Source: a virus
Taxonomy: Duplodnaviria; Heunggongvirae; Uroviricota; Caudoviricetes
DNA length: 24,208 nucleotides
Virus record (IMG/VR): IMGVR_UViG_2579778956_000001
Span: 1-24,208 of that record
Direction: 5' to 3' (one strand)
Part shown: positions 1,137-15,904 of the stretch, in pieces
Numbering within the stretch: the stretch's first letter is position 1
How the letters are laid out: the number at the start of each line of letters is the position of its first letter
Position numbers and translations under genes: made by a program
Notes under the pieces: model-generated
What the model saw: only the letters and a program-made list of their open reading frames with translations
Told to the model about the DNA's origin: nothing
Database searches by the model: none

Positions 1137-2813
1137 CTAAGCAACATGTAGTTCATCGTTGGCGGAAGTGGCTGCTTTGCGTTCCTGCTCAATAGCTAGT
1201 GACTCTCTATATTCTTTCGCCTCTGCAAACATTGTCCAGTGGGCATTGATGTTCATATCTTCAATAACCGATTTAATTTCTTTAATATTTACGTTAAAAA
1301 ACTCTTTTCGTGAGTTAATTTTATTGACCTGCTTTTCGTTGAAGACTTTATGCAGATGATTTTCTAATGACGGTGCATCATCACTATAAATCATCGCATG
1401 AACATCGAACGAAAAAGGAACACTAGCATCCCCAAGTTCACGAACACGATCAAGTGGTTCAAGGCGGCGTGTCATTCCAATTTTATATACATCTTCGCCA
1501 AATGAGCCAATATTGCTAATTATATAAACATGGCCTGATCTAGTTTGTTGAGCCATAGAAATAGCTCGTTGGTTTTTAGCTTCAGCTTCTTCATATTTTA
1601 ACTGTAGTTCAGCTATTTTTTGCTCTAAAGCTAAGCGTTGTTCTTCATTTGCAAGCATAAGCTCTTTCGTTGCTTTATTTATAGCTTGCTGAATAGCTTT
1701 TTCTTCTTTTTCGGCTTCTTTTATCGCTTTTTCATACTCTCTACGAGCTCTTTCCTCTTCACGAAGCTGTTCTTTAATCCTTCTTTGCTCCTCTTTTTCT
1801 TCGAGCATAATTTCATTAACTGCAACTCCCCATTTTAGCTCGTTGAGTCGTGCCTGAAGATAGATGTCACTTATTTTTGCGGATCTAAAAGCAGAGCCAT
1901 TATAATTTACAAGTTGAAATGCATCTTTTATTTCTTGGGAAAGTTTTCCAAAATTGTTGTGTTTGACTTTTGATAAAATACTGTCAACTCTTCCATTGAA
2001 GGCATCCAAAACAAAGTTGATAGCAGTATTACGCCTGTTTTGCTCAACATAATCACACGAAGCTGCTTTATTAGTTTTTATTAATGATTTTGTTAACTCC
2101 CTGGCTTTTTGTAATTCCTTGCCTGCATCTGTAAACTCATAATTTTCTGCCAATTCATCAAGTACACTACGGTTAGGGATGATCCATTCATCGCCATAAC
2201 CTTCAATTTTATTTTTCATTGATTTGGCAACTGCTTCATATTTTTCTGCAAACTCTTTAGCTTCATATGCTGAACCAGCAATCTCTTTTGCTCTTTCTTC
2301 TGCATCGGAAATAATTTTTACTGCGTTGTCATTAGCATTTGAGATCAGCTCATTTGCTTTACTGTTGGCATTATCAAGACGTTCTTTGGCTTTCAGGCGT
2401 GCATCGCGAGCGTCTTTGGTGATTGCTATAGCTTCGCTATTAGCGTTGCTTATTGTTATCTGAGCTTGATAACTTGCTTCGTTTACTGTCTTAGCTGCCT
2501 TTATTTGGGCTTCTTCTATTTTTTGCCTAGCTATTGAGTCTGCATTTTTTATCTTATTCTCTGCCTCCATCACTGCGCTGTGCAATTCTTCGTATTGCCA
2601 TAATGGTGCTGCTCGCCCTTCAAGCTCTGATAGATCTCGTGCAGTCTGTGCTAACTTTTCTTGATTTTCACTCAGTTGGCTGGAAAGGGCTATGTTGTTA
2701 GCCGTCAGATTATCTATGGCGGCTTTGTGTTCTTTACTTTGCTTAAATAATATTATAGCTAGAACAGGGGCGAGAAATGCTAATAAGAATATAACGATGG
2801 AAAATGAATTCAT
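1137..2813 (-). CDS. Membrane-anchored coiled-coil protein with DUF4041 and C-terminal T5orf172 (GIY-YIG-like, MUG113) domains; candidate defence/abortive-infection moron
   Basis: 558-aa ORF. N-terminal hydrophobic helix (FSIVIFLLAFLAPVLAIILF), long E/K/A-rich coiled-coil region, and C-terminal GHVYIISN...YKIGMTRRLEPLDRVRELG...PFSFDV...LHKVF...REFF, which matches the T5orf172 pattern from memory. AT-rich relative to the phage backbone. Starts 20 nt after the cI stop with AAGGA as SD. Confidence 0.8.
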   Translation of the reverse strand: MNSFSIVIFLLAFLAPVLAIILFKQSKEHKAAIDNLTANNIALSSQLSENQEKLAQTARDLSELEGRAAPLWQYEELHSAVMEAENKIKNADSIARQKIEEAQIKAAKTVNEASYQAQITISNANSEAIAITKDARDARLKAKERLDNANSKANELISNANDNAVKIISDAEERAKEIAGSAYEAKEFAEKYEAVAKSMKNKIEGYGDEWIIPNRSVLDELAENYEFTDAGKELQKARELTKSLIKTNKAASCDYVEQNRRNTAINFVLDAFNGRVDSILSKVKHNNFGKLSQEIKDAFQLVNYNGSAFRSAKISDIYLQARLNELKWGVAVNEIMLEEKEEQRRIKEQLREEERARREYEKAIKEAEKEEKAIQQAINKATKELMLANEEQRLALEQKIAELQLKYEEAEAKNQRAISMAQQTRSGHVYIISNIGSFGEDVYKIGMTRRLEPLDRVRELGDASVPFSFDVHAMIYSDDAPSLENHLHKVFNEKQVNKINSRKEFFNVNIKEIKSVIEDMNINAHWTMFAEAKEYRESLAIEQERKAATSANDELHVA

Positions 2814-2833: not shown

Positions 2834-3430
2834 TCAATTTGAAACTATTGTACTTCTTATACAAGCAACCACTTCAATATCAGAAAATGCACATTCAAAG
2901 CTATTCTCTGTAGTTGTAATTTTAATCATACCTTTTGGAAGCTTTGTGATTTTTCGAATGGAATAGGTTCCGTCGATGTTGATTAACCAGTGTCCATCAA
3001 GTACTTCAGAAAATTTTTGATCACAAATGTATGTGACAAGCCCATCCTGAATAACAATTGGTGATGAAAGATTTGCAGGAAGAAATGATGAATCGAATAC
3101 ATATGAACCATCTTCAATCATTTTGCCTGCGGTAAGGCGAAACTTGGGAAGCTCTTCTGTGGCTACTGTCAGCGAGCTTTGCTTAAGTCCTTGCCCGGTG
3201 GTTAACCATTTCAGTGAGGTTCCTGTTTCAAGAGCACATTGGATTATCCAGTCTGCAGGAAACGTATCCCGCAAATACCTGTTCGCCAGAGTGCTTTTTG
3301 ATACTTCCAAGTGATCAGCTAAAGCCTGTCGTGTCGTAAAGCCATAAGCTTCGACTAATCGCTCAATCGCAGCCTTACCACCTTTATTGGGATTTATTTT
3401 GATCTCACTTGGGTACTTTGATGTTGACAT
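2834..3430 (-). CDS. cI: 186-type CI immunity repressor (N-terminal HTH, C-terminal oligomerisation domain)
   Basis: 198-aa ORF. N-terminal LVEAYGFTTRQALADHLEVSKSTLANRYLRD...ALETGTSLKWLTTGQG resembles the phage-186 CI HTH domain. Divergent from the apl/cII genes and adjacent to int. No LexA/S24-type Ala-Gly cleavage site or G-D-S-M motif seen. Confidence 0.75.
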   Translation of the reverse strand: MSTSKYPSEIKINPNKGGKAAIERLVEAYGFTTRQALADHLEVSKSTLANRYLRDTFPADWIIQCALETGTSLKWLTTGQGLKQSSLTVATEELPKFRLTAGKMIEDGSYVFDSSFLPANLSSPIVIQDGLVTYICDQKFSEVLDGHWLINIDGTYSIRKITKLPKGMIKITTTENSFECAFSDIEVVACIRSTIVSN

Positions 3431-3525: not shown

Positions 3526-3747
3526 ATGACCCCTAACATTTCAATAACTCTGAATACGCCACATGTCACAATTGAGCGTTATAGCGAACTTACTGGTCTT
3601 TCAATCGACACAATTAACGATATGCTGGCTGACGGTCGCATCCCTCGGCATCGCCTTCGGAAAGACAAGAAAAGAGAAAAGGTGATGATCAACCTTGCTG
3701 CTCTTACCGTTGATGCACTTACTGATTGCAATGTTGTATTCAACTAG
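3526..3747 (+). CDS. Apl/Cox-like small HTH DNA-binding protein (excisionase / lytic-switch regulator)
   Basis: 73-aa ORF starting at ATG 3526 behind SD AGGAG; the ORF-track upstream extension from 3409 overlaps cI and is unlikely. HTH-like [24 protein letters not shown]. First gene of the rightward early operon, in the Apl/Cox position. Confidence 0.6.
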
Positions 3748-3779
3748 TTCCATTTTGGGATACATCAGGGGTGTCGACC

Positions 3780-4289
3780 ATGTTTGATTACCAAGTTTCC
3801 AAACATCCACATTTTGATGAAGCCTGTCGTGCATTCGCATTGCGCCACAACCTGGTGCAACTGGCAGAACGTGCTGGCATGAATGTGCAGATTCTGCGGA
3901 ACAAGCTGAACCCATCTCAACCTCATTTATTAACCGCACCAGAAATCTGGCTGCTTACCGATCTGACTGAAGATTCAACGCTGGTAGATGGTTTTCTGGC
4001 ACAGATTCACTGCCTGCCATGTGTACCGATTAATGAGGTTGCAAAAGAGAAACTGCCGCATTACGTCATGAGCGCAACTGCAGAGATCGGACGTGTTGCA
4101 GCAGGTGCGGTATCTGGTGATGTAAAAACTAGTGCCGGTCGTCGTGATGCTATCAGCAGCATTAACTCTGTAACACGACTGATGGCGCTGGCTGCTGTTT
4201 CATTGCAGGCCCGTTTACAGGCTAATCCTGCGATGGCGAGTGCAGTTGATACCGTGACTGGCCTCGGTGCTTCATTCGGTTTGCTGTGA
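3780..4289 (+). CDS. cII: Phage regulatory protein CII (186/P2-family)
   Basis: Start chosen at ATG 3780 ([45 protein letters not shown]...) after the apl stop, with a GGGG SD upstream. Sequence recalled as 186 CII-like; position after apl. Confidence 0.7.
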
Positions 4290-5103: not shown

Positions 5104-5330
5104 TGGCTGATGCAATGGATCTCGTACAGCAGCGCGTTGAAGAAGAACGCCAACGCCATATCCGTGCTGCCCGTGCCAAAACGCCGGGCGTGTCCCGCGT
5201 GCTTTGCATTGAGTGTGAAGCGCCAATTCCGCCAGCACGCCGCCGTGCCATTCCGGGTGTGCAGCTTTGCATTACCTGTCAGGAAATCGCAGAGCTGAAA
5301 GGCAAACATTACAACGGAGGTGCTGTATGA
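5103..5330 (+). CDS. TraR/DksA-family C4 zinc-finger protein
   Basis: 75-aa ORF with CxxC...17 residues...CxxC (CIECEAPIPPARRRAIPGVQLCITCQ). Start overlaps the upstream stop (TAATG). This family commonly sits upstream of replication genes in P2-like phages. Confidence 0.7.
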   Translation: MADAMDLVQQRVEEERQRHIRAARAKTPGVSRVLCIECEAPIPPARRRAIPGVQLCITCQEIAELKGKHYNGGAV

Positions 5331-6184
5331 GCACCATCCTGAAATGGGCGGGAAATAAAACTGCCATAATGTCCGAACTGAAAAAACATCTTCCTGCTGG
5401 CCCGCGACTGGTTGAACCTTTCGCGGGTTCCTGTGCTGTGATGATGGAGACGGATTATCCCAGCTATCTGGTTGCGGATATTAATCCTGATTTAATCAAC
5501 CTCTATAAAAAGGTTGCCGCTGATTGTGAATCGTTTATATCTCGCGCCAGAGTTTTATTTGAGATCGCAAACAGGGAGGTGGCTTATTACAACATAAGGC
5601 AGGAGTTTAATTACTCAACTGAAATTACTGATTTCATGAAAGCGGTATATTTCCTGTATCTCAATCGTCACGGTTACCGTGGTTTATGTCGCTATAACAA
5701 GAGCGGGCATTTCAACATTCCCTACGGTAATTATAAAAATCCGTATTTTCCTGAAAAAGAAATTCGTGCATTTGCAGTAAAAGCCCAGCGGGCAACGTTT
5801 ATCTGCGCCAGCTTTGATGAAACGCTGGCGATGTTGAAGGCGGGGGATGTGGTGTATTGCGATCCGCCGTATGACGGTACGTTTTCCGGCTATCACACTG
5901 ACGGCTTCACTGAAGATGACCAGTATCACCTGGCATGTGTTCTTGAACATCGGTCATCAGAAGGACATCCGGTCATTGTTTCTAACAGTGACACATCCCT
6001 GATCCGTTCGCTGTATCGCAATTTTACTCACCACTACATCAAGGCAAAACGCAGCATCGGTGTGGCAGCTGGCGAGGGTAAATCAGCAACAGAAATCATT
6101 GCTGTTTCCGGGCCGCGCTGCTGGGTGGGATTTGATTATTCGCGTGGCGTGGATAGTTCTGCCGTGTACGGAGTACGTGCATGA
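5327..6184 (+). CDS. dam: Dam-family N6-adenine DNA methyltransferase (orphan, phage-encoded)
   Basis: Start at ATG 5327 (SD GGAGG 5315-5319; ATGA overlap with the TraR stop). ILKWAGNK near the N-terminus, [23 protein letters not shown] and the catalytic DPPY motif closely parallel E. coli Dam. No restriction gene adjacent. Confidence 0.9.
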
Positions 6185-8595
6185 GTCATGCCGATATGAA
6201 CAACTGCTGCGGCTTTAACGAAGCTGCCGCATCGTTCTCATGGAACAGCCCGAAAAAGGCCATTAACCCTTATCTGGACCCGGCGGAAGTTGCGCCGGTT
6301 TCTACGCTTTCAAACCTGATCACTCTGTACGCTGCCGATAACGAGCAGGAACAGCTGCGCCGCGAGGCACTGAGTGATCAGGTCTGGGAGCGTTATTTCT
6401 TTAATGAATCCCGTGATCCTGTCCAGCGCGAAATGGAGCAGGATAAGCTCATTAGCCGGGCAAAGCTGGCGCATGAGCAGCAGCGTTTTAATCCAGACAT
6501 GGTCATTCTGGCTGACGTCAACGCCCAGCCTTCCCATATCAGCAAGCCGCTGATGCAACGTATTGAATATTTCAGCAGCCTGGGCAGGCCAAAGGCTTAT
6601 TCCCGCTATTTGCGTGAGACGATTAAGCCATGTCTGGAACGACTGGAGCATGTCCGCGACTGTCAGCTATCCACTTCTTTTCGCTTTATGGCAAGCCATG
6701 AAGGGCTGGATGGCCTGCTTATCCTGCCTGAAATGAGTCAGGATCAGGTGAAGCGCCTGTCTACCCTTGTCGCTGCGCATATGAGCATGTGCCTTGATGC
6801 AGCTTGTGGCGATTTGTATGCCACCGATGATGTTAAGCCAGAAGAAATCCGCAAGACATGGGAAAAGGTGGCAGCAGAAACCCTGCGTCTGGATGTCATC
6901 CCGCCTGCGTTTGAGCAACTCCGTAGGAAAAGAAACCGCCGTAAACCAGTGCCCTATGAACTCATTCCGGGTTCGCTGGCGCGTATGCTGTGCGCCGACT
7001 GGTGGTATCGGAAATTGTGGAAGATGCGTTGCGAATGGCGGGAAGAGCAGTTGCGTGCTGTCTGCCTGGTCAGCAAAAAAGCATCTCCCTATGTCAGCTA
7101 TGAAGCCGTGATGCATAAACGTGAGCAGCGCCGTAAGTCGCTGGAGTTTTTCCGTTCTCATGAACTGGTGAACGAAGACGGCGACACGCTGGATATGGAA
7201 GATGTGGTAAACGCCAGTAGTAGCAACCCGGCGCATCGCCGCAATGAGATGATGGCATGTGTTAAAGGTCTGGAGCTTATCGCGGAAATGCGCGGTGACT
7301 GCGCCGTTTTCTACACCATCACCTGTCCGTCACGTTTCCATTCCACGCTAAATAACGGCAGGCCCAACCCGACCTGGACAAATGCGACGGTAAGACAAAG
7401 CAGTGATTATCTGGTCGGCATGTTTGCTGCATTTCGTAAGGCGATGCACAAAGCCGGATTGCGCTGGTATGGCGTGCGGGTGGCTGAGCCGCATCATGAC
7501 GGTACAGTTCACTGGCACCTGTTGTGTTTTATGCGCAAAAAAGATCGCCGCGCCATTACTGCTTTGTTGCGTAAGTTTGCCATTCGTGAAGACCGCGAGG
7601 AACTGGGTAATAACACAGGACCACGCTTTAAGTCTGAGTTGATTAACCCGCGCAAAGGTACGCCAACAAGCTACATCGCGAAATACATCAGTAAGAACAT
7701 TGACGGGTGTGGTCTGGCTGGCGAGATCAGCAAGGAAACGGGTAAATCCCTGCGTGATAACGCTGAATACGTTAATGCCTGGGCGTCTCTGCATCGTGTT
7801 CAGCAATTCCGCTTCTTTGGCATTCCGGGGCGTCAGGCTTACCGTGAACTGCGATTGCTGGCTGGTCAGGCGGCAAGGCAACAGGGGGACAAAAAAGCAG
7901 GTGCGCCGGTACTGGATAACCCGCGCCTTGATGCCATTCTGGCTGCTGCTGATGCTGGTTGTTTTGCCACCTACATCATGAAGCAGGGTGGCGTACTGGT
8001 TCCCCGCAAATATCACCTCATCAGAACTGCTTATGAAATCAACGAAGAGCCGACCGCCTATGGCGATCACGGCATTCGTATTTATGGCATCTGGTCACCT
8101 ATTGCAGAGGGCAAGATCTGCACTCATGCCGTGAAGTGGAAAATGGTTCGTAAGGCCGTTGACGTTCAGGAGGCGGCAGCCGACCAGGGCGCTTGCGCCC
8201 CTTGGACTCGTGGCAATAACTGTCCCCTTGCTGAAAATTTGTACCAACAAGGGAAAGACAAATCAGCTGATGGAGATACCAGAACGGATATCACCCGCAT
8301 GGATGACAAGGAGTTGCACGATTACCTGCACAGTATGAGCAAAAAAGAGCGCCGGGAACTGGCAGCAAGGTTACGCCTGGTGAAACCGAAACGGCGTAAA
8401 GACTACAAACAACGAATTACAGACCATCAGCGACTGCAGCTCGTGTATGAACTGAAGTCCAGGGGATTTGATGGCAGCGAGAAAGAGGTCGATTTACTGC
8501 TTCGCGGCGGCAGTATTCCGTCAGGAGCAGGCCTGCGTATCTTCTATCGGAACCAGCGTTTGCAGGAAGATGATAAGTGGCGAAACCTGTATTAA
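6181..8595 (+). CDS. A: Replication initiation protein gpA (rolling-circle replication endonuclease, HUH family)
   Basis: 804-aa ORF. HUH-like VHWHLLCF and twin-tyrosine SYIAKYISK motifs. ATGA overlap with the dam stop. Size and position match P2 gene A. Confidence 0.9.
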
Positions 8596-8687
8596 TTACG
8601 CGGGTTAACAATTCGTGCTCTTAATAATACCAGGCATATCAGGGTGATGAGCGTAAAAAAACGTTTTACATCAGTAAGATTATTATA

Positions 8688-8707
8688 TACTGTAAATATA
8701 AACAGTG
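8688..8707. promoter_or_regulatory. LexA (SOS) box overlapping a putative promoter upstream of the small ORF at 8748
   Basis: taCTGTaaatataaACAGtg (CTGT 8690-8693, 8-nt AT-rich spacer, ACAG 8702-8705) matches the consensus CTGT-N8-ACAG. Embedded in an AT-rich region with a TTTACA -35-like hexamer upstream, and about 45 bp before an ORF with a strong SD (AGGAGG 8738-8743). Confidence 0.6.
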
Positions 8708-8747
8708 GTTATGTATACAGTATTGCTTTGGTGTCATAGGAGGAAAG

Positions 8748-8936
8748 ATGCAGGACTATTTTTTGGAGTCTTTGAAGCTCCAGCGCATTGATTTTTTTCT
8801 TAAGCTTGTAGCGGCTAGTGAGTGTAGTGATGAAGAGAAGGGGCTGGCTCTGCAGTGGGTTTCAGAGCTGACTGATGAGTTGATGGCGAAAATTCGTGCC
8901 CATGAATATAACCGTGTAATGGATCTTCCCGGTTAG
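8748..8936 (+). CDS. Small hypothetical protein under putative LexA control (possible antirepressor-like or SOS-induced factor)
   Basis: 62-aa ORF with strong SD AGGAGG and an upstream LexA box. Position corresponds to the 186 tum / P2 tin-old region downstream of gene A. No confident homology recognised. Confidence 0.5.
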   Translation: MQDYFLESLKLQRIDFFLKLVAASECSDEEKGLALQWVSELTDELMAKIRAHEYNRVMDLPG

Positions 8937-8949
8937 CAGCAGGGGCGTT

Positions 8950-8980
8950 GCTGGCGTGAGAACTAGATTCTCGCGTCAGC
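8950..8980 (+). other. Long imperfect palindrome / RNA hairpin downstream of the small ORF
   Basis: GCTGGCGTGAGAA (8950-8962), 5-nt loop, TTCTCGCGTCAGC (8968-8980): a 13-bp stem with two G-U wobbles in RNA. No U-tract follows, so not a canonical terminator. Confidence 0.35.
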
Positions 8981-9106
8981 AAGGTCAACTAAGGATTGAA
9001 ACAGAAAGCCCTTGAAAACAGTAGCAAGTTGCCTATTATCTACGCTGTATTTAATCGATGTCATTGGCTGTAATACCTTAAGTGATATTGAAAGGCGGTG
9101 TGGGGA

Positions 9107-10267
9107 ATGGATCTGGCTAAAGTTGAAGAACGCGTCCGAAGAGTCATAGGGACAATGGAGTCTGCCGAGCTTGATGAATATTTTTGGGGTAAGCGCTCGG
9201 GTTTGGGAGACTCATTACCTCCGTATTATCTCGTTTATTTTCTTTTGGTAGATTTACTGAAATTTAAAAATCGTGGGGTTGATGAGAAGATTTCTTTTTC
9301 TATCCCAGTCCGGATTGATGGGACTGTCGTAATTATAGAACATCGTAAACTTGGTTTAGATATATTTATCAAGAGTGATGATGATATAGAGCAAGCTAAA
9401 ACTGTTTTGAGACATATTTGCGCAGGGGTTAAAGCTGCTACGAAATTTTTTGACTCGCTTGCAGACAATGCAGCAAAGACTTCAAATCTAAATGTTAATA
9501 ACAATGCTAATTCTCTTTATGATAGGTTTTGCTATTTTTTAGAGCTATATAAACAGAAGCTTGATGAAGTTGCTGCTGGCCAAGAGTCTAAACTGGAAGT
9601 TGATAGTGAGTTTAAGTCTGATAATTTTTTCAGCCTGTTACAATCCACTTTTGAACAATCAAATAAGATAATTGAACTCCGAAGAGAGGCTATGTGGTTA
9701 GCAACGTCTGCAATTGAGTCATTTTTCAATTGGACCGAGCATGTTTTCATTCTTATTGCAATCTTGAAGGGTGAGATAAAAAATGGGAATGATGTGGCTG
9801 ATAAAGTTGGGAAAGAATGGGGGGAGAAATTCAAATTAGCCATTGATATTAACTCTTCCAGTCTAAAATCATTCTATGATCGTTTACTTATACTCAGAAA
9901 ACAGGTGCGTAATTTTGTAGCCCATGGCGCCTTCGGTAAGGATGGGCAAGCATTGGAATTTCACTCAAGTGTAGGGGCTGTGCCACTATTGCTGCCTCAT
10001 CGAGAAAATAAAGAACGTTTCAAGTTTGGAAATGGTGTGCATTTTTTGGCACCTGAAGCAATGCAATTAATTAACGATTTTCTTGAAAATTTGTGGCAGG
10101 GAGAACTGTCCCCAGCAAAAATTTATATTGAATCTGGATGTCCTTTAATACTATCTTACGTAACTAATGGAACCTATGCGGAGGCGATGAAATCAGAAAG
10201 GAATATGGACTTATTGGTTAATTACTTAACTCGTGAGATGGATAATGCCGCAAACATGGATTGGTAA
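9107..10267 (+). CDS. Hypothetical protein with HEPN-like R-N-x3-H motif (candidate RNase-type defence/abortive-infection effector)
   Basis: ORF with ATG at 9107 (alternative GTG at 9098; SD-like AAGG at 9092-9095, about 11 nt upstream). AT-rich codon usage. Contains LRKQVRNFVAHG, which fits the HEPN consensus R-[NSH]-x3-H. No other domain recognised. Lies in the gpA-Q hotspot. Confidence 0.65.
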   Translation: MDLAKVEERVRRVIGTMESAELDEYFWGKRSGLGDSLPPYYLVYFLLVDLLKFKNRGVDEKISFSIPVRIDGTVVIIEHRKLGLDIFIKSDDDIEQAKTVLRHICAGVKAATKFFDSLADNAAKTSNLNVNNNANSLYDRFCYFLELYKQKLDEVAAGQESKLEVDSEFKSDNFFSLLQSTFEQSNKIIELRREAMWLATSAIESFFNWTEHVFILIAILKGEIKNGNDVADKVGKEWGEKFKLAIDINSSSLKSFYDRLLILRKQVRNFVAHGAFGKDGQALEFHSSVGAVPLLLPHRENKERFKFGNGVHFLAPEAMQLINDFLENLWQGELSPAKIYIESGCPLILSYVTNGTYAEAMKSERNMDLLVNYLTREMDNAANMDW

Positions 10268-10594
10268 ACTCTAGGTGCGGGTTACAAACACACAAAAAAT
10301 CTTCCTGAGTTAGGTGTTATCCCAACCCAAGGCTGTGTCAGGAAAACTTCATATGGCGCATGAGATCGCATGATAGTATGACGATCGTTTTCGCTGATGC
10401 CAGCCTGAGCTGGCGGGCTGTTGCATATGTCATGCAGGCGCATGAAAACCACTGCATAAAGCGGGTAGGCGTGGCGGGGATACGAGCGCGCGCTTGTGGC
10501 TTTGAATACTCAAATCATGTAATGTTAATTGTCCAAGCTCAGATGTTATTTTAGAATCGTAGTTCACTAGAACTGTGTTAATTGGGAAGTATTC

Positions 10595-11845
10595 ATGGAT
10601 AAACAACGTGCTTCACAAGTTTTTGTGCCTGGCGGTATGCCGAAATTGACTTATGTTGAGCGCTCTGAAGGAGAGGTTCATGGAAAACTGGAGAGTGCTA
10701 AAGATAATTTATGTAAGTTAGTGACTTTAACTGGGCAAACAAAGTCTGGTAAGACTGTAATTACAAGAATGGTATTCCCAGTCATGGACGATGATGTTGT
10801 ATGGATTGACGGTGGGAGTATTACAACTGAAGATGATATTTGGGAGCAGGTATTAGAAAAACTAAATGGCTACCATAGTATTGAAGTTAATTCTGGAGAA
10901 AATAGTGCTATTGCAGTTAGTGGTAAGGTATCGGGGACCGCAAGTGCATTCGTTGTTAAAGGTACAGGTGAGGCTGGTTTAGTTCAGACGGATGGAAAGT
11001 CAAATGGTAATAAAAAATCGCGAACGATATCCGCAAAAAGTTCTGCACTAAAAGTTCTCTCTCAAACCAAGTCTAGTCTTATAATTGATGACTTTCATTA
11101 CCTTGATCGTGACCTACAAGGTAACTTTATTAGAGCGATAAAACCATTAGTTTTTGATGGAGTACCAGTTGTACTGATAGCCATTCCACATCGAAGATAT
11201 GATGCTGTAAAAGTTGAAAAAGAAATTACCGGACGGCTAGAAAATATTTCCATGCCTTCGTGGGAAATGGATGAACTAAAACAAATAGCAAAAGTGGGAT
11301 TTCCTCTGTTAAACATGGAAGTTAGTGATTCAGTAATTGATAAAATTGCCAATGAATCATTGGGAAGCCCTCATTTAATGCAAGAGTTTTGCAAGGCTAT
11401 ATGCTTAGCAAATAATGTTAAAGAAACTTTGCCGAGTAAGTTAGTTATTAATTCTTTAGATGATGATATTTTTAGAAAGGTTGCAGAATCCACTGGGAAA
11501 ATAGTATTTGATAAGTTAGCTAGTGGCCCTAATCAGCGAACTGACAGAATTCCTAGAAAACTGAAAAGTGGTGAGGAAGTAGATATATATAAAGTTGTAT
11601 TATATGCATTGTCACATATGAAACCAGGAATGCAAAGTATTCAGTATGAGGAGTTAAGATCAGCCATACGCGAACTGGTGCAAGATGCTCCTCCACAAGC
11701 TCATGAGGTTACTCGTGTTATAGAAAAAATGGCTAAAATAGCTGCTACGGAAGAAGCTTCAACTCCTGTAATAGATTGGGATAAGGAGGACCGAAAGTTG
11801 CATATTACTGATCCATTTTTTGCTTTTTATCTAAAATGGCGATAA
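10595..11845 (+). CDS. P-loop NTPase (Walker A/B ATPase), candidate defence-system ATPase
   Basis: 416-aa ORF with SD GGGAAG upstream. Walker A LTGQTKSGKT (about residue 45) and Walker B-like hhhhDD (SLIIDDFHYLD). AT-rich. No nuclease (Toprim/HNH) motif recognised, so not an obvious Old/Gabija-type protein. Confidence 0.8.
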   Translation: MDKQRASQVFVPGGMPKLTYVERSEGEVHGKLESAKDNLCKLVTLTGQTKSGKTVITRMVFPVMDDDVVWIDGGSITTEDDIWEQVLEKLNGYHSIEVNSGENSAIAVSGKVSGTASAFVVKGTGEAGLVQTDGKSNGNKKSRTISAKSSALKVLSQTKSSLIIDDFHYLDRDLQGNFIRAIKPLVFDGVPVVLIAIPHRRYDAVKVEKEITGRLENISMPSWEMDELKQIAKVGFPLLNMEVSDSVIDKIANESLGSPHLMQEFCKAICLANNVKETLPSKLVINSLDDDIFRKVAESTGKIVFDKLASGPNQRTDRIPRKLKSGEEVDIYKVVLYALSHMKPGMQSIQYEELRSAIRELVQDAPPQAHEVTRVIEKMAKIAATEEASTPVIDWDKEDRKLHITDPFFAFYLKWR

Positions 11846-11852
11846 AGGTTCT

Positions 11853-11871
11853 GGCTGCCAAACTGGCAGCC
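11853..11871. terminator. GC-rich hairpin between the convergent ATPase gene (+) and portal gene (-); putative bidirectional terminator
   Basis: GGCTGCC (11853-11859), loop AAACT, GGCAGCC (11865-11871). Located in the 32-bp gap between two convergent stop codons. Flanking T/A runs are weak. Confidence 0.45.
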
Positions 11872-11877
11872 TTAAAG

Positions 11878-12915
11878 CTAATTTGAATGAAGTTTATATT
11901 CTTCGAACTGTATCACTTTTTCTTTTAACCAAACATTTAACTCTTCAAATCTTTTTTGCAATGGTATTAGTTCATTGCGTACAAATACATTACTTGCCTT
12001 CTCCACATCCCCAAACCCCCCAACATTATTTGGCATTATCCCCATCATCTGTGGCGGCACGCGGTGTGCCGCCATCATGTCATCGCGACTAACATTTTTG
12101 ATATTCAGAAATTCATCCTTCGCTGCGACTTCTGACAACGGGATAATCTGAAGTCCGTCTTTTTTACCATTAGGCGAGTACATAAACAGATTGCGGAAGT
12201 TACCCGGACCTTTGGCGCTTTTCATTGCGTTGCGGAGGTTGTTCACATCCTCCTGGTTCTGCGCGGCATCGGTCATGTACATGATGAAGCCGGCATGACT
12301 GCCGTTAATGTAATACTTGCGGCGGAACAGCGTGGCGGACTCGTTGAGCAAAGCGGATGGGATGGCAGAAAGATAGCCGGGCAGGCCGTAGATCTCCTGG
12401 TTGATGTCCGGTTCCATCAGATGAAAAATGCTGCCTTTCGTGAACTGATACGGCTGGGTTGTCATACCGTATTGCACAAACCAGTAGGTATCCAGGTCTA
12501 ACCCGCGTCGGGTGTATTTTGCCAGCGCAGGCTCAAGGGCGATAACTTCACCGAATCGGTTCGTGCGTTTCTCCAGGTAGGCGTTACCAAATACCAGATA
12601 GTCCTGTACAAAACGCGAAAAAGCCTGTTGGCTGAGCAGCGGATGAGGGATATAGGTACTGGTCAGAATGTTGCACTTTACTGCAATCGGGGAACTGTGA
12701 TGCACGGCAGCCCGGAAGGTGCGCGCCAGTCCGTCAAAACTTACGGGTGGCTCGTACCAACACTCCATCTGTACGCATTCCACATAGTCCAGCAGTTCGC
12801 GGCGGTCCAGAACAGGAACGGGATCACCGAAGCTGAATGCTTCGGCTGAAGTCTGGCTTTTATGCTGGATCTGTTTCGTCGACGCAGCGCGGTTCTTCTT
12901 ACTCTTTCCCATCAA
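11878..12915 (-). CDS. Q: Portal vertex protein gpQ
   Basis: 345-aa ORF; size and position (upstream of and translationally coupled to the terminase gene) match P2 gene Q. Start overlaps the terminase stop. Confidence 0.85.
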   Translation of the reverse strand: MMGKSKKNRAASTKQIQHKSQTSAEAFSFGDPVPVLDRRELLDYVECVQMECWYEPPVSFDGLARTFRAAVHHSSPIAVKCNILTSTYIPHPLLSQQAFSRFVQDYLVFGNAYLEKRTNRFGEVIALEPALAKYTRRGLDLDTYWFVQYGMTTQPYQFTKGSIFHLMEPDINQEIYGLPGYLSAIPSALLNESATLFRRKYYINGSHAGFIMYMTDAAQNQEDVNNLRNAMKSAKGPGNFRNLFMYSPNGKKDGLQIIPLSEVAAKDEFLNIKNVSRDDMMAAHRVPPQMMGIMPNNVGGFGDVEKASNVFVRNELIPLQKRFEELNVWLKEKVIQFEEYKLHSN

Positions 12916-14678
12916 AAAATCTCCACAATATTGCTGGTATTGGCGGACTCGCCCTGCAGCGGTTCGTTAAACAGTGCGTGCATTGTTGCCCAGGCCAGAT
13001 CGGCATGGCTGGCTTCTTCGCTGCGGCTGGCTTCATAGGTCGGGCGGTTGCCACTGGCAGTGGTAGCGCGACGGATTGCCATAAATGACTGCGCAATGTC
13101 GGTGTGCCCGGCGTCAAACTCCAGACGGCGGTGGCTGATAATGTCGTAGGCCTTGAGTACCAGGGCGTTTTTAACATTGGGGTTGTAGACAAACTCCCGG
13201 ACGGCAGGAAAGAACGCTTTCACGTTCTCATAAACCCCGTGACCAACGCCGGTTGAGTCGATACCGATATAGGTCACGTTGTACTGTTCGGTCAGTTTTT
13301 TGATGGCGTCAGCCTGGGCGCGGAAGTCCATCCCGCGCCACTGGTGACGCTCAAGAATGCGGAACTTACCACCAGGCACGGCTGGCGGTGCCACCACCAC
13401 GCATCCGGCGCTGTCGCCGTTTTGCGTACCTTTTGCCGGGTCATAACCGATCCACACTTCGCGCCAGCCAAACGGGCGCAGAGCCAGTGCATGAAAGTCG
13501 GTCCAGACTTCCCAGCTGTCCACCATGCACGCCTGCAGCTCGCTGAGCGGAAATACGGACGCGAGATCGTCCACAAACTCGCACATCAGCAGGTTCTGGT
13601 ATTCGTCCGGGCTGTACTCCATGCGCAACTGGTCAAGGTCGAACAGGTTACAGCCGCCGCGCACCGCATCTTCCACGGTGACTATCTGGCGGTATTGCCC
13701 GTCTGCGCACAGCAGGCCGGGGGCCAGATTGCTGTGGGACAGGTCGATGTCCACCTTGTCGGCCTTGTTGCGCCCACGGTTGAACAGCGCACCGGACCAG
13801 AACGGATAAGCACTGTGTGTCAGGCTGGATGGCGTGGAAAAATAGGTTTGTCGCCATTTTTTGTGAATAGCCATACCGGAAGCCACTTTGCGCAGCTCCT
13901 GGAATTTCGGTATCCAGAAATATTCATCCAGATACAGGTTGCCGTGATAACTCTGGGCCGTGCGGGCATTGGTGCCGAGGAAGTAAAGCGTGGCCCCGTT
14001 AGGAAGCACCATCGGATCGCCTTTCAACTCCACCCCCACTTCTTTGGCGAAGTCGATGATGTACTGCTTAAAGACGTGGGCCTGTGCCTTGCTGGCGGAA
14101 AGGAAAATCTGGTTACGTCCGGTAAGCAGGGCGTCAATCAGGGCTTCACGGGCAAAGTAAAAGGTCGCGCCGATCTGGCGTGACTTCAGCAGGTTGCGGA
14201 TGCGGTTGGTTTTTCCGGCTTCCCACCAGTGGCGCTGGTAGTTGAACATGGAGGAATGGAAGATTTCTTCCAGCTTCTCAATCTGCTCATCGGTGAAAAC
14301 ATTCTTTTCCGGCTGACGGCGTGGGCCTTTATTGCGGTTGGCGACGTTAGGGTTTAAGTCGGCTTCGTTGCCGCCATTGTTAAACTTGCCGATCCGCGCG
14401 TGGCGCTCCGACTGGCGCGCCAGCAGGTCAATCTCTTTGAAATCTTTCCCTTCTTTGTGCTCCTTCATGATGAGCTGGCAGTAGCGTGCGGCGGTGGTGA
14501 GCTGCATCTGATCCAGCGGCCCATAGTCACCCCACTTGTCGCGTTTTTTCCAGCTGTGAACGGTTGCAACTTTCTCGCCCAGCATTTCAGCAATGCGGGC
14601 TACGCGGTATCCCTGAAAGTACAGCAGCATGGCCTGCCGACGGGGATCGAGATCTGCGGGTGTCAGTGTGGTGTTCAT
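12912..14678 (-). CDS. P: Terminase large (ATPase) subunit gpP
   Basis: 588-aa ORF (P2 gpP is about 590 aa), divergent from the scaffold gene O, with the Q gene immediately downstream in the same orientation. Confidence 0.9.
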   Translation of the reverse strand: MNTTLTPADLDPRRQAMLLYFQGYRVARIAEMLGEKVATVHSWKKRDKWGDYGPLDQMQLTTAARYCQLIMKEHKEGKDFKEIDLLARQSERHARIGKFNNGGNEADLNPNVANRNKGPRRQPEKNVFTDEQIEKLEEIFHSSMFNYQRHWWEAGKTNRIRNLLKSRQIGATFYFAREALIDALLTGRNQIFLSASKAQAHVFKQYIIDFAKEVGVELKGDPMVLPNGATLYFLGTNARTAQSYHGNLYLDEYFWIPKFQELRKVASGMAIHKKWRQTYFSTPSSLTHSAYPFWSGALFNRGRNKADKVDIDLSHSNLAPGLLCADGQYRQIVTVEDAVRGGCNLFDLDQLRMEYSPDEYQNLLMCEFVDDLASVFPLSELQACMVDSWEVWTDFHALALRPFGWREVWIGYDPAKGTQNGDSAGCVVVAPPAVPGGKFRILERHQWRGMDFRAQADAIKKLTEQYNVTYIGIDSTGVGHGVYENVKAFFPAVREFVYNPNVKNALVLKAYDIISHRRLEFDAGHTDIAQSFMAIRRATTASGNRPTYEASRSEEASHADLAWATMHALFNEPLQGESANTSNIVEIF

Positions 14679-14820: not shown

Positions 14821-15459
14821 ATGACAGTGAAAGCAAAGCGTTTTCGCATCGGGGTGGAAGGTGCCACCACCGACGGACGCGAAATCCAGCGTGAATGGCT
14901 GGAACAGATGGCAGCCAGCTACAACCCGGCGGTGTATACCGCGCTGATTAACCTTGAGCACATCAAGTCTTATCTGCCGGACAGCACCTTTAACCGCTAC
15001 GGCAAGGTGACGGCGCTGTTTGCTGAAGAAATCAAGGAAGGTCCGCTGGCAGGCAAGATGGCGCTGTATGCCGACGTTGAGCCAACGGAGTCCCTGGTGG
15101 AACTGGTGAAAAAAGGCCAGAAATTATTCACATCTATGGAAGTTAGCCCGAAGTTCGCTGATACGGGCAAAGCCTACCTGGTCGGCCTGGCTGCCACTGA
15201 TGACCCTGCCAGTCTGGGCACTGAAATGCTGACATTCAGCGCCAGTGCAGCCCATAACCCGCTGGCAAACCGCAAGCAGAATCCCGCCAATCTTTTTACC
15301 GCTGCAGAGGAAACGGTGATCGAACTGGAAGAAATCCAGGATGACAAACCGTCCCTGTTTGCCCGTGTCACGGCGCTGTTCACCAAAAAAGAGCAGTCCG
15401 ATGACGCCCGGTTCTCTGATGTGCATAAGGCCGTGGAACAACTGGCAGGGGATCGTTGA
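14821..15459 (+). CDS. O: Capsid scaffolding protein gpO, C-terminally truncated at a deletion junction (likely nonfunctional)
   Basis: 212-aa ORF with an N-terminus of gpO type (FRIGVEGATTDGREI...YLVGLAATDDPASLGTE). P2 gpO is about 284 aa as I recall. The ORF ends in a short non-homologous tail (QLAGDR*) exactly where tail-tube homology begins in another frame. Confidence 0.75.
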   Translation: MTVKAKRFRIGVEGATTDGREIQREWLEQMAASYNPAVYTALINLEHIKSYLPDSTFNRYGKVTALFAEEIKEGPLAGKMALYADVEPTESLVELVKKGQKLFTSMEVSPKFADTGKAYLVGLAATDDPASLGTEMLTFSASAAHNPLANRKQNPANLFTAAEETVIELEEIQDDKPSLFARVTALFTKKEQSDDARFSDVHKAVEQLAGDR

Positions 15460-15904
15460 GTCGCTGACGCTGCCGAAATTTACCCGCAAATATGAGAAGT
15501 ATCGCGGCGGCGGAATGCCGGGTGCGGTGGATGTGGATCTGGGGCTTGATGACAGTGCGCTGGACACAGAATTTTCCATTGGTGGTACTGAATTGCTGCT
15601 GTTTAAACAGATGGGTAAAGCCACGGTGGATGGCATCCAGCTGCGCTTTACCGGCTCTATTCAGCGTGACGATACCGGGGAAGTGCAGGCCGTGGAGCTT
15701 GTCGTGCGTGGACGTCACAAAGAAGTGGATTCCGGCGAGTGGAAGACGGGCGAAAGCAACACCACCAAAGTGACCAGTACCAACAGCTACGCGAAGCTGA
15801 CCATCAATGGTGAGGTGCTCTATGAAGTGGACCTTATCAACATGGTGGAAATTGTGGACGGTGTGGACCTGATGGAAGCGCACCGCAACGCCCTCGGCCT
15901 CTGA
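15446..15904 (+). pseudogene. FII: Tail tube protein FII, 5'-truncated fragment fused downstream of gpO
   Basis: Frame of ORF 15341..15904. Homology to the P2 major tail tube protein begins about at QGIVESLTLPKFTRKYEKYRGGGMPGAVDVDLGLDD and runs to the C-terminus (...EAHRNALGL). About 25 N-terminal residues and any start codon/SD are missing; the upstream part of the ORF overlaps gpO out of frame. Confidence 0.7.

Follow-up and report, generated by a model that had tools for sequence, protein, structure and literature searches.

Results and discussion

The GC-rich patch is almost certainly a P2-family cos site

Comparison with phage genomes identifies the GC-rich patch between two cargo genes of an Escherichia coli prophage, almost certainly, as the cos site of a phage of the P2 family (Peduoviridae, Fels-2/Felsduovirus-type). 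The patch is thus an element already described, and neither a new RNA nor a new regulator. The whole stretch of DNA analysed, referred to hereafter as the window, comprises 24,208 nucleotides. An initial annotation had offered three options for the patch: a structured RNA, a regulatory site with a promoter, or the remnant of a displaced gene at a seam between separately acquired genes. It missed the identity of the patch as a phage cos site, although the seam option was right in substance. The main value of the result is correct annotation, in that the spacer is not an unexplained regulatory region.

The spacer lies between a 389-aa open reading frame (ORF) that ends at 10267 and a 416-aa ORF that starts at 10595, and spans 327 bp (10268-10594). 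GC content is 57% at 10380-10510, as compared with 38% and 37% in the left and right flanking genes, and a 100 nt profile reaches its maximum of 62% at 10400-10499. The length of the spacer and the GC-rich patch noticed initially were both borne out, and the contrast in composition is real. The hairpin GCCAGC-CTGA-GCTGGC was also found, at 10399-10414, as were a 10 bp palindrome, AGCGCGCGCT, at 10485-10494 (the earlier estimate being one base further left) and a 64-codon ORF (10360-10554) not preceded by a purine-rich Shine-Dalgarno sequence. The description of the patch as palindrome-dense did not stand up to comparison with 2000 dinucleotide shuffles. At least one 10 bp palindrome occurred in 30% of the shuffles, so that the palindrome is not significant (p = 0.30); at least two 8 bp palindromes occurred in 41% (p = 0.41), and at least two hairpins with a 6 bp stem in 11% (p = 0.11).

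The right end of the window is 100% identical to the ybjL-ybjM-grxA region of many E. coli strains. The order of the prophage genes places the spacer within the gpA-gpQ interval of a P2-like phage:

1-1053, - strand: integrase
1137-2813, - strand: AT-rich T5orf172/DUF4041 gene
2834-3430, - strand: CI repressor
3726-4289: CII
5267-6184: Dam methylase
6181-8595, + strand: replication gene A, the hotspot's conserved left border (Pfam Phage_GPA, 2e-127)
8748-8936: 62-aa gene
9098-10267, + strand: left cargo gene, 389 aa, 38% GC, in the slot between gpA and cos
10268-10342, + strand: tail of the left cargo module (3' flank of the 389-aa gene), which travels with that gene
10494-10594, + strand: AT-rich leader of the ATPase gene, which travels with that gene
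10595-11845, + strand: right cargo gene, a 416-aa P-loop ATPase, 37% GC, in the slot between cos and portal gene Q
11878-12915, - strand: portal gene Q (Pfam Phage_portal)
12912-14678, - strand: large terminase gene P (Pfam Terminase_6N/6C, Terminase_5)

Beyond P lie a truncated scaffold gene O and then the tail genes FII, E, T, U and D and an ogr-like gene.

The joined right and left ends of P2 (NC_001895), 186 (NC_001317) and P4 (NC_001609) were aligned with positions 10330-10560 of the window and with Fels-2 (NC_010463). Relative positions (- or +) are counted from 10468, the first base of the 19-mer. The alignment with the joined ends was essentially gapless over ~150 bp, and 10468-10486 fell, without gaps, on the annotated 19 nt cohesive ends of P2, 186 and P4. 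Identity of the 19-mer was 14/19 to P2 and P4, 15/19 to 186 and 19/19 to Fels-2 and SEN8 (NC_047753). The cohesive end annotated in the P2 record (cosL/cosR), GGCGAGGCGGGGAAAGCAC, resembles GGCGTGGCGGGGATACGAG in the window. The 19 nt interval of P2, 186 and P4, GGCG(A/T)GGCGGGGA(A/T)A..., is shared by the window, which differs from P2 and P4 at five positions and from 186 at four, having an ATACGAG tail instead of AAAGCAC/AAAGCAT. From left to right, the elements common to the alignment are GCATG repeats near -110/-100, a GC-rich palindrome near -60, TCATGCA at -38, GCAT(G/T)AAAACC at -28, AAG(C/T)GGG at -9, the 19-mer itself and GCGCGC at +20. In the 186 record the top strand is cut at the 5' end of the 19-mer and the bottom strand at its 3' end. 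Bases 1-19 of the SEN8 record, identical to the window 19-mer, are annotated 'putative cos site'. In Cartapus (NC_070909), bases 1-59 bear the annotation 'putative cos site, homologous to the cos of P2 phage' and match 10436-10493 at 96.6% identity. These two phage records thus both carry the ATACGAG variant as 'putative', and a search for a phage record with experimentally mapped ends of this variant returned such putative annotations only.

Besides the homologous cohesive end, the window contains, at 10439-10493, the ~55 bp core of P2-family cos sites (Ziermann and Calendar, 1990, to the extent cited in PMC5694545). Position and orientation also agree with the P2/186/P4 family, with gpA (+, 6181-8595) followed by cos and then by Q (-, 11878-12915). 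A complete cognate terminase is not encoded by the element, gpP being present and gpM absent; this bears on whether the window's copy works, not on its sequence identity. Deletion of cos from a P2 lysogen stops packaging of the phage, while cos-bearing cosmids are still packaged (PMC9942202).

Anatomy of the cos region

The following features were placed in and around the patch:

10343-10493, + strand: conserved cos region, from ~125 bp left of the putative first nick through 7 bp right of the 19 nt interval
10355-10373, + strand: distal GCATG repeat pair GGCGCATGAGATCGCATGA, candidate terminase recognition repeats
10360-10554, + strand: 64-codon ORF across cos, read as a chance open frame in GC-rich conserved DNA and not as a gene
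10399-10414, + strand: hairpin GCCAGC-CTGA-GCTGGC, a decayed, register-shifted form of the family hairpin at -69 to -50
10430-10450, + strand: proximal repeat pair TCATGCAGGCGCATGAAAACC, a partly inverted copy of the distal pair (conserved columns -38 to -18)
10439-10493, + strand: ~55 bp core (C/T)GCATGAAAACC...AAGCGGG..(19-mer)CGCGCGC, delimited by information content and matching the described P2-family 55 bp core
10461-10467, + strand: left half-site GCGGGTA, directly 5' of the putative top-strand nick (family consensus GCGGGC(A/G))
10468-10486, + strand: cohesive-end interval GGCGTGGCGGGGATACGAG, by homology to annotated cosL/cosR (P2) and cos (186)
10487-10493, - strand: right half-site CGCGCGC (top) / GCGCGCG (bottom), ending at the putative bottom-strand nick

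By homology, the top-strand nick would fall on the 5' side of 10468 and the bottom-strand nick after 10486, leaving 5' overhangs. Directly 5' of these predicted nicks the top strand reads GCGGG(C/T)(A/G) and the bottom strand GCGCGC(A/G), and the two half-sites would thereby give the staggered nicks a two-fold symmetry. Such symmetric half-sites would account for the palindrome AGCGCGCGCT, which is made up of the right half-site and the last two bases of the 19-mer. GCGCGC at +20 to +25 is nearly invariant among 97 cos regions (1.6-2.0 bits) and lies outside the pattern by which these regions were found.

To the left of the 19-mer the region is rich in GCATG repeats, which probably serve in terminase recognition. 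Within the window an inverted repeat links 10359-10373 with 10430-10444, and a direct repeat, GGCGCATGA, occurs at 10355 and 10437. The motifs keep fixed positions across the family: TGCAT is found at -124 in 59/97 cos regions, at -111 in 64/97 and at -101 in 47/97, and ATGCA at -36 in 72/97, with further TGCAT/ATGCA motifs at -29. The density of GCAT/ATGC is 5.5 per 100 nt in the block and 0.6 outside it, a difference of ~9-fold. The window itself has CGCAT instead of TGCAT at -111 and -101.

Conservation and position of the cos block

A blastn search with the spacer found 10352-10493 conserved at 83-96% identity in 1401 of 5426 complete E. coli genomes, and also in Fels-2 and in P2-like phages of Klebsiella, Yersinia and Salmonella. 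None of the 5426 E. coli genomes matched the spacer as a whole over at least 80% of its length. A 43 nt degenerate cos pattern was derived from the alignment and run on contigs of a one-genome-per-species collection. It matched the window once, with 0 mismatches, and gave 0 matches in 100 shuffles; across other species it found 98 loci, nearly all in Enterobacterales. With this match and its conservation in 1401 E. coli genomes, the patch as such goes far beyond what chance would give. The window's 19-mer was the commonest variant, at 34 of the 98 loci. Wherever marker genes were found, the P2-like loci had gpA (+) upstream, then cos, and Q (-) downstream, and P4-like satellites had psu (+) upstream, then cos, and int (-) downstream.

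The per-column information content of 97 distinct cos regions climbs at about -125, stays close to 2 bits between -29 and +25 and drops to about zero beyond +25; columns -28 to +14 are fixed by the search pattern, and +15 to +25 and -38 to -32 are free of it. The limits of information content (about -125 to +25) set the functional block at about 10343-10493. Conservation ends abruptly on both sides and variable AT-rich cargo lies beyond, which indicates that the two cargo genes do not form an operon. The premise that the spacer is a gap inside an operon was accordingly wrong, and the flanking genes occur separately in other strains (see below). Reading the patch as cos accounts for both the abrupt shift in composition and the length of the spacer.

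RNA, promoter and gene-remnant readings of the patch

A structured RNA, whether a small RNA or a leader regulating the ATPase gene in cis, might be expected to appear as a conserved non-coding block bearing several short inverted repeats, which the patch is. The hairpin at -69 to -50 is moreover enriched across cos regions, with pairing kept while the stem sequence varies. The conservation is, however, strongest over the 19 nt cleavage interval and its flanks, which are conserved in sequence and without covariation. Minimum free energies of the spacer and the cos block were at the level of dinucleotide shuffles on both strands (z = 0.25, 0.02 and -0.68), so that there is no excess stability. 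An Rfam scan of 8500-12000 at E<=10 returned five chance-level matches, none of them in the spacer (10268-10594), and a tRNA/tmRNA scan of the window found none. The same block also adjoins unrelated genes in either orientation and lies at the physical ends of P2, 186 and P4 DNA. We therefore regard an RNA as extremely unlikely.

The patch could instead be a promoter or operator that controls the ATPase gene. This gene would need a promoter of its own, since cos and, in relatives, a terminator-like hairpin stand between it and transcription from upstream, and there is one sigma-70-like match (TTGTCC-17-TAGAAT, 10529-10557). The match falls not in the GC-rich patch but in the AT-rich leader, which accompanies the ATPase gene, and one such match is what chance predicts (1 found, 1.0 expected). 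Dryocola sp. BD613 (L018), whose ATPase homologue is 90% identical, does not retain these hexamers upstream of that gene. Elsewhere the patch itself stands before numerous unrelated genes, or immediately before the 3' end of Q. A regulatory role of this kind is very unlikely.

Next to no probability attaches to the third proposal, that the patch is what recombination left of a displaced gene. Its composition does differ from that of both neighbours, and it sits exactly at the boundary of two modules with different histories. Yet its GC content (55-57%) fits the phage core (52-59% in Q, P and tail genes), it has no coding signature, and searches with the patch, including the BLASTN comparison suggested for tracing it to another gene, returned only cos regions of P2-like phages and prophages and no internal part of any gene. 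The patch is a conserved functional core element of the phage, not a gene remnant. The associated idea of a seam between separately acquired genes holds, as the two genes occur independently and blocks of identity end at 10493 and begin at 10352.

The hairpin at 10399-10414 is a decayed accessory element

Most Fels-2-type relatives with the same 19-mer carry, at the position of the window's hairpin, the terminator-like sequence GCCCGCCA-GAAC-TGGCGGGC followed by TTTT. The hairpin in the window has four differences from the commonest form among cos regions with the same 19-mer, and three (10406, 10409 and 10420) from its closest E. coli relative, 2014C-3097. These substitutions shift the register of the stem and break the T-run to TGTT. 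Perfect stems of at least 6 bp were found in 29 of the 97 cos regions (30%), as compared with 5% of shuffles. Although enriched, the hairpin is absent from P2 and many other cos regions and so is not a universal feature of cos; it is a frequent, non-essential accessory. Phage 186 has an annotated terminator, t95b, further upstream than the palindrome.

As a Rho-independent terminator the window's hairpin was rejected. Its 6 bp stem is followed by GGGCTGTTGC, with no direct T-run, and a terminator scan of the window called none on the + strand. The hairpins of relatives have 8-11 bp stems followed by TTTT, and may act there as a terminator or insulator between early and cargo transcripts and the cleavage site, a function that would have decayed in the window.

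The ORF at 10360-10554

The 64-codon ORF that crosses cos deserves separate consideration, since it matches the phrog_28685 profile (E = 1.3e-20), and PGAP annotates the same ORF in strain UMNF18 (WP_071533703.1). Of 29 relatives sharing the window's 19-mer, 21 keep the frame open over 47 codons or more. It could on these grounds be a real gene for a small protein. The profile match spans only aa 1-46, however, which is exactly the conserved DNA block, and the point at which the ORF ends differs between relatives, within the variable right flank. Selection on the reading frame was sought in 28 in-register relatives as a synonymous excess, third-position variation and absence of stops, and was not found: the synonymous fraction was 0.25, as compared with 0.24-0.35 in the other five frames; variants by codon position numbered 34/44/39, with no third-position excess; and in-frame stops occurred in 7/28. 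The ORF lacks a Shine-Dalgarno sequence, as noted above, and every packaging event would cut it in two. A protein-coding function is very improbable. Its PGAP annotation over cos and its clustering as phrog_28685 very probably represent a recurrent artefact of annotating a conserved DNA signal.

Predicted working of the site and comparison with known cos systems

Homology with P2, 186 and P4, together with general knowledge of cos phages and of how cos sites work (described in PMC7617512), suggests the following cycle. In a complete phage, terminase (small subunit gpM and large subunit gpP) would recognize the ~150 bp cos region on replicated circular DNA and nick the two strands 19 nt apart, and the procapsid would take up the DNA via the gpQ portal. 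After injection the 19 nt 5' overhangs would anneal and be ligated, re-forming cos. In an integrated prophage cos would be internal and silent.

The cos sites of P2, 186 and P4 share their architecture with the window, and also their position, with the early/replication arm on the upstream side and the 3' end of Q on the downstream side. Q follows cos by ~190 bp in P2 and 186, whereas in the window the 1.25 kb ATPase gene lies in between; the cos of P2, unlike that of the window, has no hairpin. The putative cos sites of Fels-2, SEN8 and Cartapus have an identical 19-mer and a block 83-97% identical, and here too cargo genes tend to be carried between cos and Q. The window differs from these in its decayed hairpin (6 bp stem, broken T-run) and in a rare T at -2, and its prophage, unlike theirs, has lost the small terminase and capsid genes.

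Lambda cos (cosN/cosB) has a terminase recognition region beside a nicking site with partial two-fold symmetry; the nicks are staggered, leaving 5' cohesive ends whose annealing and ligation restore the site. The window's cos would work in the same way, but has no sequence similarity to that of lambda and does not belong to the lambda cos family. The overhang is 12 nt in lambda and would be 19 nt here. Unlike in lambda, the presumed recognition sequences of the window lie almost all on one side, extending over ~125 bp to the left of the nicks and 7 bp to the right.

State of this copy

The prophage (~21 kb) lacks ~13 kb of late genes, including those for the small terminase, the capsid and most of the tail. 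A tblastn search of the window gave no match for FI, H, I, J, W, V, S, R, the endolysin, X, L, M or N. O is cut short at residue 212 of 277, and a deletion that fused this truncated gene to FII explains the missing late genes. Because gpM and the capsid have been lost, the prophage should be unable to cut or package DNA at its own cos, which would be usable only with a related helper phage.

The cos of the window has six substitutions that are absent from both closest E. coli relatives, three of them in or next to the hairpin. Another of the six, a C to T change at -2 (10466), beside the putative nick, is shared by few others, T being found there in only 2 of 97 cos regions. These six substitutions may reflect relaxed selection and, as gpM, N and 11 other late genes are absent, this copy of cos may be a decaying relic. 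The prophage nevertheless keeps int, the repressor, gpA and cos, along with three AT-rich cargo genes, and might be mobilized, in the way that satellites are, by an intact helper of the Fels-2 type.

Cos divides the gpA-gpQ hotspot into two independent cargo slots

The gpA-gpQ hotspot is directly adjacent to cos, and the core cos signal is common to P2 and P4 (Rousset et al., 2022, PMC9122126); the position between cosL and Q is a known insertion hotspot (PMC5694545). As in the published descriptions of this defence hotspot (PMC9122126; NAR 2026, PMC13586616), the window has variable AT-rich cargo between gpA and gpQ beside cos. It is no different in kind; what it makes explicit is the division by cos into two independently recombining slots.

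The left-hand gene had been labelled 'HEPN-like', a label that we could not confirm: the 389-aa protein has no match in Pfam, NCBIfam, PHROGs, PADLOC or PDB sequences. A terminator-like hairpin lies on the minus strand at 10304-10331, in the tail of this module. The right-hand 416-aa ATPase matches the PADLOC candidate PDC-S59 (1.2e-31) and, just under the cut-off, Pfam AAA_22 (1e-05). Its gene is preceded by a ribosome-binding GGGAAG at 10584-10589, and GGGAAGT(A/G)TTCATGGATAAACAA is kept in Dryocola sp. BD613, in which the homologue (90% aa identity) directly follows cos.

Each cargo gene also occurs without the other. E. coli 2014C-3097 has the 389-aa gene and no ATPase; it is 97.6% identical to the window over 6269-10493 (from gpA), diverges from 10494, and carries three unrelated genes between cos and Q. 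Conversely, UMNF18 has the ATPase and no 389-aa gene. Its genes left of cos are unrelated and it diverges left of 10352. Over 10352-14000 (the ATPase gene, Q and P) identity to the window is 99.4%, and 10494-10594 contains a single mismatch. In LF82 a further, different gene (DUF4145) occupies the right side of cos. We conclude that the two cargo genes occupy independent slots of the gpA-gpQ defence hotspot, split by cos, and that it would be wrong to treat them as a two-gene 'HEPN + ATPase' system.

A base-by-base comparison shows the window agreeing with 2014C-3097 over the distal half of cos and with UMNF18 from the core to the right, and the switch lies inside the ~75 bp cos core, at about 10419-10493. 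It thus looks like a recombinant, with a 2014C-3097-like left arm (gpA, the 389-aa gene and distal cos) and a UMNF18-like right arm (cos core, ATPase, Q and P). The two strains are not its literal parents, because a few sites interleave. A broader reading, in which cargo is exchanged at cos by crossovers clustered in the core, with helper mobilization of the deleted prophage as a second thread, is speculative, and we give it only a small chance of being right. If crossovers do cluster in the cos core genome-wide, beyond the expectation from length of homology, this would directly support the published speculation that terminase-cut ends drive cargo swaps.

For P2-like prophages in general, cos provides an exact landmark for delimiting defence cargo, with limits at about -125 and +26 from the start of the 19-mer. 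The Q stop codon is 1410 nt from cos in the window, on account of the inserted ATPase gene, Q and P normally lying ~200 bp to the right of cos. Among the 54 loci with Q downstream, the Q stop was 181-212 nt from cos in 26, which have no right-hand cargo, and 28 had 0.4-3.2 kb of cargo between cos and Q. Loci with the window's 19-mer carried right-hand cargo in 20 of 23 cases, the other three having none.

An open reading frame over cos

The following reading frame lies across cos, the cohesive-end packaging site.

10360-10554 (4009-4203 in the UMNF18 locus): 64-aa ORF across cos, annotated by PGAP as WP_071533703.1

This ORF has a PHROG of its own (phrog_28685, unknown function). A coding signature was absent from it, and it is therefore probably an annotation artefact that recurs over a conserved DNA signal.

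Motif positions in that signal were compared in 97 distinct cos regions, drawn from the cos-pattern loci L010-L107 from a one-genome-per-species collection together with P2, 186 and P4. TGCAT/ATGCA occurred at fixed positions (-124, -111, -101, -36 and -29 relative to the 19-mer of the cohesive-end interval, 10468-10486), and its density within the cos block was about ninefold that of sequence outside it. On the 5' side of each inferred nick, the adjacent bases make up symmetric half-sites, GCG(G/C)G(C/T)(A/G). We regard the TGCAT/ATGCA motifs and the symmetric half-sites as candidate terminase recognition elements.

A mosaic cos in a deleted prophage

Comparison of the window with the UMNF18 and 2014C-3097 loci over 10352-10493 showed that a mosaic junction lies within cos. 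In its distal half the window copy resembles 2014C-3097; the core and all sequence rightward resemble UMNF18. Across 3.6 kb the window and UMNF18 differ by ~22 mismatches, nearly all of them located in 10352-10466. Six substitutions (10406, 10409, 10420, 10425, 10454 and 10466) are unique to the window with respect to both close relatives. The last of these places a rare T at -2, beside the inferred top-strand nick, a base found in 2 of the 97 cos regions, and some of the six weaken a hairpin and its T-run. These window-specific substitutions may represent decay in a defective prophage.

The prophage carries an internal deletion, seen at 14821-15904. The scaffold gene O breaks off at residue 212 of 277; near 15398-15456 it is fused to the tail tube gene FII. 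No match was found in the window to the capsid N, small terminase M, L, lysis, baseplate, tail fibre or sheath genes, and intact relatives that occupy this ybjL site have a late-gene arm ~13 kb longer.

Cargo genes and adjoining hairpins

Two hairpins adjoin the cargo genes flanking cos, and a further AT-rich gene lies between the integrase and the CI repressor.

10304-10331 (-): terminator-like hairpin with T-run, just downstream of the stop of the 389-aa gene
11853-11871: GC-rich 8-bp hairpin, GGCTGCCA-AAC-TGGCAGCC
1137-2813 (-): 558-aa gene, 37% GC, with DUF4041 and T5orf172/MUG113 (GIY-YIG-like) domains

The hairpin at 10304-10331, a putative terminator, is part of the left cargo module and would block leftward transcription across cos. 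The ATPase gene and the portal gene Q converge, and the 32 nt between their stops are occupied by the hairpin at 11853-11871, which is probably a bidirectional terminator; a simple terminator scan did not call it because it has no long T-run.

The 558-aa gene represents a third piece of cargo and lies in another minor P2 hotspot that is already known. The 389-aa putative 'HEPN-like' protein (9098-10267) had no match in Pfam, NCBIfam, PHROGs, PADLOC or PDB sequences, and its gene is conserved at 96-98% in several prophages of E. coli, among them that of 2014C-3097 (WP_032248694.1). The 416-aa ATPase (10595-11845) gave a weak AAA_22 match and matched PADLOC PDC-S59, a candidate single-gene system, at 1.2e-31. 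A homologue 90% identical to this ATPase directly follows cos in Dryocola sp. BD613.
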